Of a stretch of DNA of 64,000 nt, positions 3,977 to 21,071 are shown piece after piece (the stretch's first letter is position 1; every line of letters starts with the position of its first letter). The notes under the pieces were generated by a model, which was not told where the DNA came from, ran no database searches, and was given only the letters and a program-made list of their open reading frames with translations. Origin of the DNA: an uncultured Planctomycetales bacterium (lineage in GTDB: Bacteria > Omnitrophota > Gorgyraeia > Zapsychrales > GWA2-47-8). Made by a program: the position numbers and the translations under genes. The stretch lies in NCBI GenBank assembly GCA_964499685.1, contig CAZCLW010000002.1, positions 93,013-157,012 on the forward strand. The letters are read 5' to 3'.

Positions 3977-4049
3977 AGCTGGCGAGAGGAATTGAACCTC
4001 CGACCCGCGCATTACGAATGCGCTGCTCTACCAACTGAGCTACGCCAGC
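3977..4049 (-). tRNA. tRNA-Thr (anticodon CGT)
   Basis: The reverse complement gives GCTGGCG-TA-GCTCAGTTGGTAGAGC-A-GCGCA TTCGTAA TGCGC-GGGTC-GGAGGTTCAATTCCTCT-CGCCAGC. This is the classic D and T arms with anticodon CGT. Confidence 0.85.
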
Positions 4050-16076: not shown

Positions 16077-17860
16077 AAAAGACCGCCTTAGCGACAATTT
16101 TTTTATTCCTCTGCGGATGCGCGGCGCCTGTCGCGCAGGAGCGCACCGCCTCCATTATCTTGAATGATGTTCATTCGCGGCTGAATCCCACGCGCGTGGC
16201 TGAAGTCCATTATCCTAAATCAACCAAAGACATCGTCGCCATCGTCAAAGACGCCAAGCGCCGTCAAAAGCCGGTGAGCATTTCCGGCGGACGGCACGCC
16301 ATGGGCGGACAGCAATTCGGCGAGGACACGGTCCACATCAGCATGAAGGAGATGAACGATGTCCTTTCCTTTAATAAGGAGACCGGCATTGTGCGCGTGG
16401 AGGCCGGTATCGGCTGGCCCAAACTGCTCGACTATCTCGCCAAAGAACAGGAAGGGCAGTGGCCGCAATGGGCGATCGCTCAGAAGCAGACCGGCGCGGA
16501 TGAGCTCTCGCTGGGCGGCGCGCTTTCGGCCAACGCGCACGGCCGGGGCGTGCGTTACAGGCCCATTATCCAGGATGTGGAGCGCTTCACGCTGGTTGAC
16601 AGCGATGGGAAAGTTTTACAGGTAAGCCGCACGGAGAATGCGGAATTGTTCTCTCTGGCGATCGGCGGTTATGGACTTTTCGGCGTTATCGCGACCGTGG
16701 ACTTACGGCTCCAGCCGCGTCAGAAACTGCAAAGAGATGTTGAGGTCATTTCGATCGAGGATCTCCCGGAAAAGACGAAGCAAAAATTGGCCGAAGGCTA
16801 TCTCTACGGCGATTTCCAGTACAAGACCGACGCGGCCGCGAGTGATTTCATGCAGAAAGGTGTTTTCACCGGCTACAAGCCCGTACCGCCCGAGACGCCT
16901 ATCCCTGAGGGGCAAAAGGTTTTGACAACCGACGAGTGGTATAAATTGATCCACCTCGCGCACGTGGACAAGTCCCGGGCCTTTGAGGTCTACAGTCAGC
17001 ATTATTTGAAGACCAACGGCCAGATCTATTGGTCCGATACCATGCAGCTGGGATTTTACGCGGACCAGTACGTGGAATATCTGGAGAAGGCCATGCCGGA
17101 TTATCCCCAGGGTTCGCTGATGATCACGGAAGTGTATGTGCCGCGGCCCAAACTGACTGAATTCATCTATAAAGTGATCGACGACGCACGGGCCCACAAT
17201 GTCAACATCATCTACGGCACCATGCGCTTGATCGAGAAAGATGATGAAAGTTTTCTGGCCTGGGCCAAACAAAATTATGCCTGCGTTATCTTTAATCTGC
17301 GCGTGGACGCGGGCGAGGAGGGATCGAAGAAAGCGCAGGAAGATTTTCAGCGGCTGATCGACCGGGCGTTGGAGTTTGATGGCTCCTATTTCCTGACCTA
17401 TCACCGCTGGGCGCGCAAAGACCAAGTGCTCAAAGCCTATCCGCAATTCCCTGAATTCCTGCGCTTAAAGTTAAAATACGATCCCGAAGAGCGTTTCCAG
17501 AGCGAGTGGTACCGGTATTACAAGAAGTTTATCGGAACAGGCCCCGCCGACCCATTTTTCCAAAAGCATGTTGAGCCGTGGCTTGACGATCCGGAGACCG
17601 AATCCATCTTTTTAGGCGCGGCGCTGGAAGACCCCCAGCCGCATCTTGAAGGCCCGTGGCCGCACTATGTTGTGGGCTTCCGGGTCGAAAAGCAATTTAA
17701 GGGCGCTCCGGAAGCGGAGATCGAGCTCCTGCTCGATGCGCCCCTTGATGAAAACTTTGTCGAGATCAACGAAGGCGGGACGTACCTTATCCGGAAGGAA
17801 CAGGGGAACTTTTTGAACGTCATCCCGGCGCCAAAGGACCAATCCCCGTCGGAAATTTAG
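16073..17860 (+). CDS. FAD-binding oxidoreductase (PCMH-type FAD_binding_4 domain, GULO/alditol-oxidase-like) lipoprotein
   Basis: Lipobox LFLCGC. The FAD-binding segment PKSTKDIVAIVKDAKRRQKPVSISGGRHAMGG is typical of the vanillyl-alcohol-oxidase superfamily. A long C-terminal extension is present. Confidence 0.7.
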   Translation: MKKTALATIFLFLCGCAAPVAQERTASIILNDVHSRLNPTRVAEVHYPKSTKDIVAIVKDAKRRQKPVSISGGRHAMGGQQFGEDTVHISMKEMNDVLSFNKETGIVRVEAGIGWPKLLDYLAKEQEGQWPQWAIAQKQTGADELSLGGALSANAHGRGVRYRPIIQDVERFTLVDSDGKVLQVSRTENAELFSLAIGGYGLFGVIATVDLRLQPRQKLQRDVEVISIEDLPEKTKQKLAEGYLYGDFQYKTDAAASDFMQKGVFTGYKPVPPETPIPEGQKVLTTDEWYKLIHLAHVDKSRAFEVYSQHYLKTNGQIYWSDTMQLGFYADQYVEYLEKAMPDYPQGSLMITEVYVPRPKLTEFIYKVIDDARAHNVNIIYGTMRLIEKDDESFLAWAKQNYACVIFNLRVDAGEEGSKKAQEDFQRLIDRALEFDGSYFLTYHRWARKDQVLKAYPQFPEFLRLKLKYDPEERFQSEWYRYYKKFIGTGPADPFFQKHVEPWLDDPETESIFLGAALEDPQPHLEGPWPHYVVGFRVEKQFKGAPEAEIELLLDAPLDENFVEINEGGTYLIRKEQGNFLNVIPAPKDQSPSEI

Positions 17861-17948
17861 ATTGACAAATTTTCCCTCGGGCGCTACAAGAGGAATTAGG
17901 GTACCATACCTATTTTGACGATATAAAAAGAATTCCTGGGGTTAAAAA

Positions 17949-18353
17949 ATGAGTAATTCGGATATTGAAGAAAGCATCAAACAATATTTACTCAATTTAA
18001 AGACGTTGTATGGTGAGATTAAATCTATTTGGCTGATCGGCTCAAGAGCGAACAACGCTGCAACTGATAATTCGGATTGGGATTTTCTGCTCTTCGGGAG
18101 TAAAAATGTTTTCAGGGCGTTGCAAAATGATCAATCATTTAAAAGAGAAAAAATAGATTTACTTGTCGTGGATGAGGATGGGGAATTTAAAGATCCATGG
18201 CAAAATAAAAACGGCGATCTCGCCTCCTGGCGTTGGAAAAAACAATCAGAAAATACAGCAACTTATCGTTCTACAAAATTTATACCGGATGAGCCAGAGG
18301 GCGATTTGGGTACTTTTGAAGAGAAATGGTTTAAAGCTATAAGGATTTTATAA
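17949..18353 (+). CDS. Minimal nucleotidyltransferase (Pol-beta-type NTase fold)
   Basis: hG[GS]...DxD signature IWLIGSRANNAATDNSDWDFLLFG plus a downstream acidic LLVVDED. 134 aa. The region is strongly AT-rich relative to its flanks. Confidence 0.6.
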   Translation: MSNSDIEESIKQYLLNLKTLYGEIKSIWLIGSRANNAATDNSDWDFLLFGSKNVFRALQNDQSFKREKIDLLVVDEDGEFKDPWQNKNGDLASWRWKKQSENTATYRSTKFIPDEPEGDLGTFEEKWFKAIRIL

Positions 18354-18389
18354 GGATAAGGCATGCGCAATTAACTGGAGAGTCTTGAT

Positions 18390-19343
18390 TTGGAATCTAA
18401 GAAAAGCATAGCGGCGCTTAATCGCGAATTACGCAATTTACCCGAATATGAATTGTACTTGTCGATTACAACCTTTGACATATCGCGGCACATATTTAAC
18501 AGAAATTATTATGAATTGTCTAAATTAATATCCTTTTTGGTAAATGACCCAAAAGCGGATCAATATATGATAGTAAAAAACCGTGATAAATTGGATATAT
18601 TATTAGATGAGATTATTCGCATGACGCATAATTTCGTAGCTTCCGCAATGTCTCTGGTTGATCATACAAGGATTTTCTATAAGAAATCATATGAAAAGAA
18701 TGACAGATTTCCTGATTATCAGGCAAAAATTGATGACACTTTTACGAATGATAATTTAGTACAGTTTGTTCATTGCCTGAGGCAATATTGCCAGCACTAT
18801 AGGTCTCCGAATATTTCTGTTGAGGAATCATGGAATCAGGGAGACCAACGCCCAAAGAGGTCAATAAAACTCTTAAAACGAGATTTAAATACATTTTCTG
18901 GGTGGAATTCTAAGGCAAAGAATTATTTGATGGGGGAGGATGAAAAAATTGACTTAATTTCTGTGATAGATATTTATAAGGATAAGATTTTAAATTTTCA
19001 TTCATGGCTCCGGAAAAGACAGGGAGAAATACATGCTGCTGAATTCAAAGTTTTAAGAGATAAGGAAAAAGAAGTTTTAGTTGCACAAATTGTTATGTTC
19101 TTAAATGGAGCTTTAAAGAATGATCGAATGCAATATTCAGGTGAAGATGAAATATTTTATGGCATATTTACATCTAAAGATTACGAAGAACTAGAAGCTT
19201 ATTCGTGGGATTCTCCAGCCAGATCAAAGCGAGCCATTGAGTTATTAAAACAACGTCTCGATGTACCCGAGGATGTCATCAGGAGAATCCGATTGTGGTA
19301 TGAGAAGAAAGCACAGAGAAGCGGCCTTGTAAACAAGAGATAA
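18390..19343 (+). CDS. Hypothetical alpha-helical protein, possible HEPN/Abi-like partner of the NTase
   Basis: 317 aa, AT-rich codon usage, apparent TTG start. Contains an R-x4-H motif (LRQYCQHYR) of the kind found in HEPN RNase domains. No other recognisable motifs. Confidence 0.35.
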   Translation: MESKKSIAALNRELRNLPEYELYLSITTFDISRHIFNRNYYELSKLISFLVNDPKADQYMIVKNRDKLDILLDEIIRMTHNFVASAMSLVDHTRIFYKKSYEKNDRFPDYQAKIDDTFTNDNLVQFVHCLRQYCQHYRSPNISVEESWNQGDQRPKRSIKLLKRDLNTFSGWNSKAKNYLMGEDEKIDLISVIDIYKDKILNFHSWLRKRQGEIHAAEFKVLRDKEKEVLVAQIVMFLNGALKNDRMQYSGEDEIFYGIFTSKDYEELEAYSWDSPARSKRAIELLKQRLDVPEDVIRRIRLWYEKKAQRSGLVNKR

Positions 19344-19453
19344 AGAACCAATGGACAAGGAAGCAATAGTTTTTTGGATAAAAAACTGTGAAAGAACTTA
19401 CGTGGATATGCAAGAGATGCGCGCATAACAATTAATCATGCACTGAAATAAGA

Positions 19454-20479
19454 TTGATTATTCCCATGTCTGCCCAATTCCTTACCAAATCCTCCTATTT
19501 TAAGCTCCTCCATTCCATCTGCTCCGAAATGTCTTCCGGTCTCGCCCGCGTCGAGAAGCTCCTTGAGCGCCAGAAGGTCGTGACTTATTGGGAGATCGGC
19601 AGACACATCAACCGCTACCTGGCAAAAAACGCGCCGGTGCGGGGCAAGATTGGGTCATTTTATGACCGGCTCTCCGGCGATATCAAGGTCAGCGCCAGGA
19701 CACTTCAGCATTGTGAGCAATTTTTCCGCTATTTTCCCCGGTTGCCCAAAGCGGACGGCCTAAGCTGGTCGCATTACCGTTTTCTTCTGGTCCTGCCGGA
19801 GGAGAAGGAACGCCTAAGCTGGATCAACCGTATCCGGCGGGCCAATATTTCGGTCAATGACCTGCGGCTCGAACTGCTTTCCAAGACCGGAAGTTTGGAA
19901 GAAGAGGAAGGGCAGCGGCTCGATGGACCGCGCCGCGGCGCATTGTACACCTATCGTTTGCGCCGTGCCGAAGGCCTGGAAGGGGTCGGGGTGCCGTGGT
20001 TCGTGGATTGCGGGTTTTCCTGCCGCATTGAGGCGCCTCTATCCCGGAGCGCTTTGGAACTCAAATATATCTACACTTCGGAAAAAACAAAAGAGGGCTA
20101 CCGGCTCAAGGTGACCGATACACCGGCGGATGCGATCTATACCTACAAGGCCAAGATGCGCCGGGTGATCGACGGTGATTCGCTGCTCGTCGACGTGGAC
20201 CTGGGCTTCGGCATCTGGACCGAACAGCGTCTGCGCCTGCGGCTGATCGATACGCCTGAGCTTGATACTCTGGCCGGACAAAAGACCAAACGCTGGCTGG
20301 AGAATGAATTGAAGGACTGCCCCTTTGTCATCGTCAAGACGTACAAGAGCGATAAATATGACCGGTATCTCGTTGATGTATTTTATGCGCCCGGTGAGGA
20401 AGACGCACAAGCGGTTGCCGATGAAGGAACGTATCTGAACGGCCGGTTGGTGGAGTTGAAACTGGCCAAGCTCTGGTAA
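19454..20479 (+). CDS. Fusion protein: DUF1016_N (YhcG N-terminal-like) domain plus staphylococcal-nuclease (SNase/thermonuclease) domain
   Basis: N-terminal KVVTYWEIGRHI...LSWSHYRFLL resembles the YhcG N-domain. C-terminal RVIDGDSLLVDV...LRLRLIDTPE...KYDRYLVDV...GTYLNGRLVELKLA matches the SNase catalytic core. Confidence 0.55.
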   Translation: MIIPMSAQFLTKSSYFKLLHSICSEMSSGLARVEKLLERQKVVTYWEIGRHINRYLAKNAPVRGKIGSFYDRLSGDIKVSARTLQHCEQFFRYFPRLPKADGLSWSHYRFLLVLPEEKERLSWINRIRRANISVNDLRLELLSKTGSLEEEEGQRLDGPRRGALYTYRLRRAEGLEGVGVPWFVDCGFSCRIEAPLSRSALELKYIYTSEKTKEGYRLKVTDTPADAIYTYKAKMRRVIDGDSLLVDVDLGFGIWTEQRLRLRLIDTPELDTLAGQKTKRWLENELKDCPFVIVKTYKSDKYDRYLVDVFYAPGEEDAQAVADEGTYLNGRLVELKLAKLW

Positions 20480-20595
20480 TAACGGACTTGCCTGAAGCCG
20501 GAAGCCGTGTAATACTTGTTTCTGCCCTCACAGTTATAACCTTCCTTATCCGATTTCCCCTAAAGCATAAACTAAACAATCCGCAAAGGGGAACT

Positions 20596-21009
20596 ATGTC
20601 TGTTGTAATTCCGCAGGAAGTCATCGAACAGAAAATCTATTTAATCCGAGGTAAGAAAGTGATGCTGGACAAAGATTTAGCCCAATTATACGGGGTACCA
20701 ACTAAGCGCCTCAAGGAACAGGTCCGCCGCAATCCCAGACGATTTCCGAATGATTTTATGTTTGAGCTGACATGGGAAGAAGCGGAGACGCTGGCTTCAA
20801 GGTCGCATTTTGCGACCTTGAAAAAAGGTAAAAATATTAAATATCTGCCCTATGTTTTTACCGAGCAAGGGATTGCCATGTTAGCCCGGAAACTTGAAGA
20901 GCTGGAAAGGAAATACGATGCACAGTTTAAAGTCGTTTTTGACGCGATCCGGCAAATTGTAGCACCGCCTGATCCGCCTAAGCGTAAGATAGGTTTTCAT
21001 GCTTATTAA
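20596..21009 (+). CDS. ORF6N domain DNA-binding protein (phage/mobile-element-associated family)
   Basis: LIRGKKVMLDKDLAQLYGVPTKRLKEQVRRNPRRFPNDFMFELTWEE is the characteristic ORF6N/KilA-like N-terminal domain. Confidence 0.6.
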   Translation: MSVVIPQEVIEQKIYLIRGKKVMLDKDLAQLYGVPTKRLKEQVRRNPRRFPNDFMFELTWEEAETLASRSHFATLKKGKNIKYLPYVFTEQGIAMLARKLEELERKYDAQFKVVFDAIRQIVAPPDPPKRKIGFHAY

Positions 21010-21071
21010 TCTTTTTTTAACCTTCCCTTAATCTCCCGCGGCGCACAATGGCGTCGGAAAGGGAGGTGGAT

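Follow-up and report, generated by a model that had tools for sequence, protein, structure and literature searches.

An AT-rich two-gene islet encodes a minimal nucleotidyltransferase next to a protein of a large unnamed family with a putative HEPN-type active site

The closest described counterpart of the locus reported here is the HepT/MntA module, a type VII toxin-antitoxin system in which, as set out in two accounts (PMC7641770, PMC11586414), the MntA antitoxin neutralises the HepT toxin by nucleotidylation. HepT is a small DUF86/HEPN protein of about 110–140 aa, and the tyrosine of its RX4HXY motif, two residues after the histidine (H+2), is the AMPylation site. Here we describe an AT-rich islet of about 1.6 kb in a 64,000-nucleotide stretch of DNA (hereafter the window) from contig CAZCLW010000002.1 of an uncultured Omnitrophota bacterium. 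The islet encodes a minimal nucleotidyltransferase (MNT) of 134 aa and a 317-aa protein that belongs to a very large family without a name. As in HepT/MntA, a minimal Pol-beta nucleotidyltransferase is located directly upstream of a helical R-x4-H protein, and among solved structures it is closest to MntA-type antitoxins. However, at more than twice HepT's size, the 317-aa protein differs also by a beta-hairpin, by extra domains and by a tyrosine at H+1, and it matches no DUF86 or HEPN profile. The window MNT scores far below the cut-off of the MntA equivalog and has a family-specific C-terminal extension, and the pair is not conserved elsewhere.

The abortive infection (Abi) proteins AbiD/AbiF (Abi_2), AbiV, AbiU2 and AbiJ (PMC3710099) provide another comparison. 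They are stand-alone, mostly helical proteins of about 200–350 aa with an Rx4-6H motif, and single-gene HEPN Abi proteins are found on mobile elements or in defence-rich regions without an obligatory partner. The family of the 317-aa protein is alike in these respects, but differs in that 146 of its members have no match to Abi_2 or to the HEPN_* Pfam families and in having a second conserved motif, HN...DH.R. Vpc_cass2 (PDB 3jrt), a HEPN protein from an integron cassette, is much smaller (166 aa), gave a low structural score and has no detectable sequence relation to the 317-aa protein. Finally, the genes downstream of the islet match the models of two candidate families of PADLOC, PDC-S02 (YhcG/DUF1016) and PDC-S05 (ORF6N). 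The PDC families are untested candidates, proposed by 'guilt by embedding' in BREX, DISARM and type I restriction-modification loci (bioRxiv 10.1101/2024.01.29.577857).

A foreign two-gene stretch and its nucleotidyltransferase

The segment 17900–19400 has a GC content of 35.2%, which corresponds to z = -8.9 relative to the 1.5-kb windows outside 17.5–21.5 kb (mean 51.6%, standard deviation 1.8, minimum 47.5%). In the sliding profile the GC content is 31–39% across about 17.9–19.4 kb and 47–57% in the rest of the window, and this is the single such dip in the whole 64 kb. The GC content at third codon positions (GC3) follows the same pattern, being as low as 0.34 and 0.33 in the two genes of the islet (134 and 317 aa) versus 0.69, 0.675 and 0.70 for the flanking genes encoding an FAD oxidase, a 341-aa nuclease and a CusF-like protein, respectively. 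The composition borders at about 17.86 and 19.49 kb are sharp; between 17800 and 17950, for instance, the GC fraction drops from 0.56 to 0.26–0.32. The sharp borders together with the GC and GC3 profiles delimit a foreign stretch of about 1.6 kb with exactly two co-oriented genes. An original prediction, made from the sequence alone, had placed a two-gene drop from roughly 58 to roughly 35% GC at about 17.9–19.45 kb and had proposed a codon-usage calculation as a check. The drop, its low value and the foreign codon usage are borne out by our measurements, whereas the flanks are at about 52–55% rather than 58%. The islet is thus horizontally acquired and compositionally foreign, and its two genes form a cassette at about 17.86–19.47 kb that was recently imported from a donor of low GC content. 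Omnitrophota genomes with 33–41% GC encode the homologues closest to the 317-aa protein.

The genes around the islet are of the housekeeping type: a GDSL lipase, the FAD oxidase, the CusF-like protein, a transglutaminase/DUF58/MoxR set, a Nuo51-type protein and a UbiA-family protein. In agreement with the prediction that no integrase is present, neither integrase nor transposase was found among the ORFs (open reading frames) of 180 aa or more in the region 9.5–30.5 kb. Scans for a promoter consensus in the leader of the islet and for a terminator-like site in its 3' border gave results at chance level. The 7-nt repeat AGATTGA is present at 17859 and at 19451, where the composition changes. When one border was aligned locally with the other, 37% of shuffles equalled the best alignment, and there is therefore no evidence for att sites or target duplications at the borders.

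The first gene encodes, as was predicted, a genuine minimal Pol-beta nucleotidyltransferase, judged from its sequence. The protein exceeds the Pfam cut-offs for NTP_transf_2 (29.1 bits, cut-off 21) and Polbeta (28.8 bits, cut-off 26.9). Both the hG[GS]...D-x-[DE] motif and the third carboxylate are present, with GSRANNAATDNSDWD encoded at 18039–18083, and the catalytic residues G31-S32, D43, D45 and D70 are invariant in an alignment of the MNT with 22 homologues (23 sequences). A C-terminal extension specific to the subfamily is also conserved (K87, G89, L91, W96 and Y106). When the profile of this alignment was compared with PDB sequences, the significant relatives were MNT-type proteins only, described as partners of HEPN toxins: 2rff (6e-7), the MNT antitoxin 7ae2_B (7.5e-5), the Shewanella MntA 5yep_A (9e-4), the Legionella MNT 8XEH and 8XEO, and HI0073 (1NO5). 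Only the N-terminal nucleotidyltransferase core aligns to the MntA structures. On these profile comparisons the first gene is 'MntA-like' rather than an MntA proper.

The 317-aa protein, its family and its conserved motifs

The second gene starts with TTG, as was proposed. Homologues of 300–330 aa align from residue 1–5 onward and cover 96% of the protein, a Shine-Dalgarno-like GGAGAG read from the sequence lies 7 nt 5' of the TTG, and Asn39 is 99% conserved. The public collection entry for this protein is only a 258-aa product beginning at Met60 (P0001), which lacks Asn39 and is about 59 codons short (18390–18566). The exact MNT sequence is absent from the same collection. Since P0001 starts at Met60 and the MNT sequence is missing, both genes were probably mis-annotated or missed in the source assembly.

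No match at E≤1 to Pfam, NCBIfam or PADLOC-DB v2 was obtained for the 317-aa protein. A k-mer-seeded search retrieved 28 relatives, and an exhaustive profile search retrieved 3,050 representatives of 50%-identity clusters at E≤1e-3, 792 of them at E≤1e-30. With tblastn, relatives were also found on replicons of Vibrio, of an actinobacterium and of three haloarchaea. None of 146 diverse members consistently matches any Pfam family, and Pfam detected no fused domains in 10 longer members that are extended at the N- or C-terminus. With more than 3,000 clusters and yet no match in Pfam, NCBIfam or PADLOC, this is a large family without a name. The family profile retrieved just a meaningless neurolysin match among PDB sequences. 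A phage origin was considered and rejected, as tblastn gave 0 matches in 50,697 phage records and a pattern scan of IMG/VR also gave 0; the single phage trace is a weak match to phrog_12680 (function unassigned). On these searches, the family appears essentially absent from phage collections.

The AlphaFold2 model of the 317-aa protein, made from a 28-sequence alignment, has a pLDDT of 91.4 and a pTM of 0.80. Its predicted architecture consists of a helical bundle core (about 29–245), a beta-hairpin insert (142–162) and a small C-terminal helical domain (250–317), and the long helices assigned by DSSP are 29–52, 62–100, 110–119, 122–137, 189–214 and 216–243. Conservation was measured over 146 representatives, each from a different 50%-identity cluster. 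The R-x4-H motif that had been pointed out in the original prediction, RQYCQHY at 18780–18800, is confirmed, with R131 and H136 each 99% conserved. It is located at the C-terminal end of the predicted helix 122–137 and is followed by P140 (88%), a loop and the strand 142–147. Given this conservation, the sequences indicate that the match is not due to chance. The residue after R131 is polar in 79% of the representatives (Q 38%, N 28%, E 8%, H 5%). Y133 is about 70% conserved and Y137, at H+1, 73%; the position H+2 is R, K, Q or E. A stripe of conserved residues runs along the helix 62–100: E74 (76%, plus D in 9%), R77 (87%), H80 (95%), N81 (98%), D91 (88%), H92 (97%) and R94 (92%).

In the HEPN superfamily the motif is located at the end of a helix, the residue after the arginine is usually polar, and an acidic residue is conserved in helix 2 (PMC3710099). 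Csx1 has a beta-hairpin that directly follows the HEPN motif (PMC3710099). If 29–52, 62–100, 122–137 and 189–214 are taken as helices 1–4, the model would fit this description point by point, including the helix-end position of the motif. The best single hypothesis for the 317-aa protein is a HEPN-type active site, and we favour it slightly. The fold comparison that had been proposed as a check is compatible with HEPN and non-discriminating. The best structural matches of the 317-aa protein include HepT toxins; Foldseek returned nothing below E 0.067 (PDB) or 0.5 (BFVD), and TM-scores were 0.1–0.3. A helix-turn-helix was considered for family HMM (hidden Markov model) positions 184–262 (W172...Y196...F203...W206), which gave 18 bits with the HTH_Tnp_1 domain of an IS3 OrfA (L094:4999-5298, minus strand). 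We judged this to be a chance likeness of amphipathic helices because AlphaFold2 shows one continuous helix there. The segment may have a DNA- or RNA-binding role.

Mobility, partnership and rival readings

To place the family in its genomic settings, 93 loci with a member were gathered (L001–L093), all their ORFs were called, and these were searched with the window MNT by phmmer; loci of MNT homologues are among L094–L104. In the 89 family loci with enough flanking sequence, the family genes have on average 6.6 GC points less than their flanks, and 53 of the 89 are more than 5 points lower. MNT homologues are 7–13 points below their flanks in three of five loci. As both families are AT-richer in many unrelated genomes, the look of an AT-rich islet is a family trait and not peculiar to the window. 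A 294-aa member in Vibrio sp. HDW18 (WP_095466730.1; NZ_CP049914.1, L101:7796-8971) constitutes a single-gene cassette of a chromosomal integron array. It is flanked on both sides by attC-type repeats, of which 10 kb contain at least 11 copies, and next to it are cassettes for RelE/ParE-HigA and for a 'putative phage abortive infection protein'. An abundance of anti-phage genes has been reported for such arrays (bioRxiv 10.1101/2024.07.02.601686).

The immediate same-strand neighbours of family genes are highly diverse, with no recurrent cluster beyond near-duplicate loci. The Pfam types among 68 immediate neighbours include housekeeping proteins, restriction-modification, ThsB/TIR, GmrSD, Schlafen/AlbA, a kinase (PD-T4-6), NACHT-associated proteins, an integrase and IS66. 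In a wider census of 25 non-redundant long loci, no common partner emerged among the 134 ORFs located within 5 kb; phage integrases (three ORFs) and YhcG/PDC-S02 nucleases (two ORFs, in 2 of the 25 loci) were the most frequent families. In other loci the family gene is located beside AbiJ-type and Ymh-type HEPN proteins. The 317-aa family thus behaves as a mobile, normally solitary single gene. In one locus (L004:1258-8877, JGI contig Draft_10000173), the family gene lies in a dense defence island with genes for TIR_2, two ThsB_TIR proteins, an IS110 transposase, a Shedu-type SduA_C nuclease and DUF6602; it is placed between the ThsB/TIR genes and the nuclease gene, and a lipase-like alpha/beta-hydrolase gene (228 aa) overlaps it by 29 bp.

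How could the two genes of the islet work? One possible chain, which we propose tentatively, is that of a HEPN-type RNase effector neutralised here by the upstream MntA-like nucleotidyltransferase. The 317-aa protein would be the functional core, a metal-independent RNase of the HEPN superfamily with R131 and H136 in the active site, aided by E74, R77, H80, N81, D91, H92 and R94 of the neighbouring helix. Its beta-hairpin and extra C-terminal helices would form a regulatory or sensing part. The protein would act as a toxic or abortive-infection effector, as single-gene HEPN Abi proteins do, its own extra domains normally regulating its activity. In the window, the MNT would silence the RNase by nucleotidylation close to the active site, Tyr133 or Tyr137, both conserved, being possible targets. 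In this chain RNase activity, toxicity, a defence role and the functional link of the two genes are what we infer, and a toxin-antitoxin or defence pair is plausible. The layout is in keeping with such a pair: both genes are on the same strand and in the same frame, the 36-bp gap contains a Shine-Dalgarno site, the composition is identical, and no terminator-like site was found in a scan between them.

Several results weigh against this chain. For the HEPN part, no HEPN, DUF86 or Abi_2 profile is among the Pfam matches (E≤0.05) of the 146 members, and Abi_2 (PF07751) also gave no match at E≤1 for the 317-aa protein itself. For the HEPN/Abi-like assignment that had been proposed, the motif and its position are supportive and the profile searches are not. 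An hhalign comparison of the family with one PF05168 HEPN protein was null (probability 0.5%). The putative helix 2 carries E74-x2-R77 and D91-x2-R94, a spacing unlike the typical HEPN E-x3-[KR], and the tyrosine of the motif is at H+1, unlike the H+2 of the HepT RX4HXY. For the link between the genes, the MNT had no homologue in any ORF of the 93 family loci, even at E≤10, and NTP_transf_2 was absent from the 68 immediate neighbours. Conversely, MNT relatives in five contexts are alone or beside a membrane protein, DUF4912 or fragments of insertion sequences, and no relative of the 317-aa protein was present in these five contexts. In the data searched, the idea that the islet represents a conserved MNT–HEPN-like module thus failed the co-occurrence test that the original prediction itself had named. 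The 317-aa family evidently works without the nucleotidyltransferase elsewhere, given that this pairing is not conserved, and the arrangement in the window is so far unique among the sequences searched. In addition, as the census of neighbourhoods has no control set, 'defence-island associated' is a qualitative description only.

Two other candidates for a conserved relationship were rejected. The neighbours of MNT homologues showed no relation to the 317-aa protein, as hhalign was null with proteins of 362 aa (a multi-pass membrane protein), 348 aa and 177 aa. A conserved small antitoxin upstream of family genes was reduced to one helix-turn-helix lineage, the remaining small upstream ORFs being spurious. 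In the closest clade (Omnitrophota, 50–54% identity), the gene for the 317-aa protein occurs with another partner, either a protein of about 250 aa or a lipase-like hydrolase, both of which are missing from the window. The gene for the 250-aa partner (L001:5909-6673, L002:2021-2785, L003:3323-4087 and L005:6080-6838; also in L006 and L012) either overlaps the family gene by 34 bp or abuts it 3 bp downstream, and in L003 it is two genes upstream. Its copies are 55–59% identical between loci, have a charged coiled-coil middle part and match neither Pfam nor PHROG.

Because neither family needs the other elsewhere, it is about as likely as the RNase–nucleotidyltransferase chain that each of the two genes is a mobile single-gene cassette independent of the other, brought side by side by shared AT-rich DNA or by a hotspot, not coupled at all and acting alone like its relatives elsewhere. 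Both families are solitary in every other context examined, the 317-aa family includes a one-gene integron cassette, its nearest relatives have the 250-aa protein or the hydrolase as partner instead, and the lower GC content of MNT homologues relative to their flanks suggests that these are mobile on their own account. Such a juxtaposition would nevertheless leave unaccounted for the shared strand, the 36-bp spacing, the same composition and the lack of a terminator-like site between the genes. It would also have to be a coincidence that the MNT's only characterised relatives act on HEPN partners and that the 317-aa protein has a HEPN signature, which is suggestive. In a further version, a large unnamed family of single-gene mobile immune or toxin effectors, either a new, enlarged HEPN branch or a new catalytic helical fold, would have come here under the control of an MntA-like nucleotidyltransferase, and the capture would turn a self-regulated Abi-type effector into a type VII-like toxin-antitoxin pair. 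We consider this version unlikely.

It is also rather doubtful, if a little less so, that the 317-aa protein is no RNase at all, and rather a sensor, regulator or scaffold whose helical bundle binds a metal or a small ligand or harbours another catalytic site. The R-x4-H spacing, the polar residue after the arginine, the position at the helix end, and the proline and loop that follow are all HEPN-like. Two conserved arginines (R94 and R131) would suit phosphate binding more than metal binding, and H80 and H92, 12 residues apart on one helix, would by helix geometry be too far from each other to hold one ion. That the pair is a type VII HepT/MntA module as such is very improbable. The gene order, MNT then R-x4-H protein, and the resemblance of the MNT to MntA structures would agree with it. 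However, the MNT reaches only 23.6 bits with the NCBIfam MntA equivalog NF047752, for which the cut-off is 60, the second protein has 317 aa versus about 110–140 aa for HepT and lacks a DUF86/HEPN profile match, the tyrosine is not at H+2, and the pair is not conserved. As three defining features that were tested (the equivalog score, a small DUF86/HEPN toxin with RX4HXY, and conserved pairing) are lacking, the pair does not belong to the HepT/MntA family, although it may still function in the same way.

If the proposed chain of a HEPN-type RNase controlled by the MNT is true, a family of more than 3,000 sequence clusters from bacteria and haloarchaea gains a predicted RNase activity and a mobile toxin or anti-phage role, and this family, missing from Pfam, NCBIfam and PADLOC, could be added to defence-finding tools. 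The MNT partner in the window would provide a simple test of whether MntA-type nucleotidylation regulates HEPN-like proteins well beyond HepT. The main value of the locus is that it flags a large unnamed candidate effector family together with a cheap experiment on it. If the proposal is wrong, the islet is still a clean case of a very recent import of about 1.6 kb into a housekeeping region with no integrase.

Downstream genes and other features

The features of the region are collected in Table 1. The four ORFs are located as in the original prediction (17949–18353, 18390–19343, 19454–20479 and 20488–21009).

Table 1. Location of the features in and next to the AT-rich islet (window coordinates).
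Feature	Position	Strand	Basis or remark
AT-rich 5' border and leader of the insert	17861..17948	+	Begins directly after the FAD oxidase stop codon
MNT, 134 aa, ATG start	17949..18353	+	Pfam NTP_transf_2 and Polbeta
Spacer between the MNT and 317-aa genes, 36 bp	18354..18389	+	GGAGAG at 18377-18382, 7 nt before the TTG
317-aa protein, TTG start	18390..19343	+	Unannotated large family
Stripe HNFVASAMSLVDHTR in the long second helix (H80, N81, D91, H92, R94)	18627..18671	+	Conservation; E74 and R77 just upstream
R-x4-H motif RQYCQHY (R131...H136), putative catalytic site	18780..18800	+	99% conservation; predicted helix end
AT-rich 3' border of the insert	19344..19465	+	35.5% GC; host-level composition again by about 19500
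DUF1016_N and staphylococcal-nuclease-like fusion, 341 aa from TTG	19454..20479	+	Pfam, phrog_452
ORF6N-domain protein, 138 aa from Met36 (probable start; 173-aa ORF 20488-21009)	20593..21009	+	Pfam ORF6N, E 1.4e-33

The gene that follows the islet encodes a fusion of DUF1016_N (35.5 bits, cut-off 32.8) with a staphylococcal nuclease-like (SNase) domain (20.3 bits, cut-off 21), and the protein matches the phrog_452 endonuclease at 7e-25. An ATG at 19466 (337 aa) is more likely to be its true start than the TTG at 19454. DUF1016_N is usually fused to the PDDEXK nuclease domain of YhcG. In the window protein, PADLOC PDC-S02 matches residues 5–144 only, i.e. the DUF1016_N part, and an SNase-like domain replaces the PDDEXK domain at the C-terminus. 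Since its GC3 of 0.675 is like that of host genes, the nuclease gene is not part of the insert; it is host-like and lies outside the imported stretch. The next protein matches PDC-S05 over residues 40–157 (E 1.2e-40) as well as PHROG anti-repressor families, and its gene has an intermediate GC content of 43.6%. The identities proposed for these two neighbours are thus confirmed, and both match PADLOC candidate families, PDC-S02 over the N-terminal part only. Only the two-gene stretch is compositionally foreign.

The only Rfam or ARAGORN matches in the window are a tRNA-Phe (GAA, plus strand, 2337–2410) and a tRNA-Thr (CGT, minus strand, 3977–4049), both far from the islet and with no evident link to it. 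An A/T-rich inverted repeat of 18 nt (17940–17957 and 21005–21022, 89% complementary) brackets the four genes, with its arms at the start codon of the MNT and the stop codon of ORF6N, and is probably a chance match. The window ORF6N protein is 51% identical to a protein encoded at L094:5427-5933, minus about 33 internal residues that separate the ORF6N domain from the C-terminal helix. The homologue closest to the window MNT (55% identity) is also encoded in L094, 2.5 kb from the ORF6N gene there. MNT and ORF6N genes are thus near each other in both the window and L094, with IS3 and ParE genes intervening in the latter.

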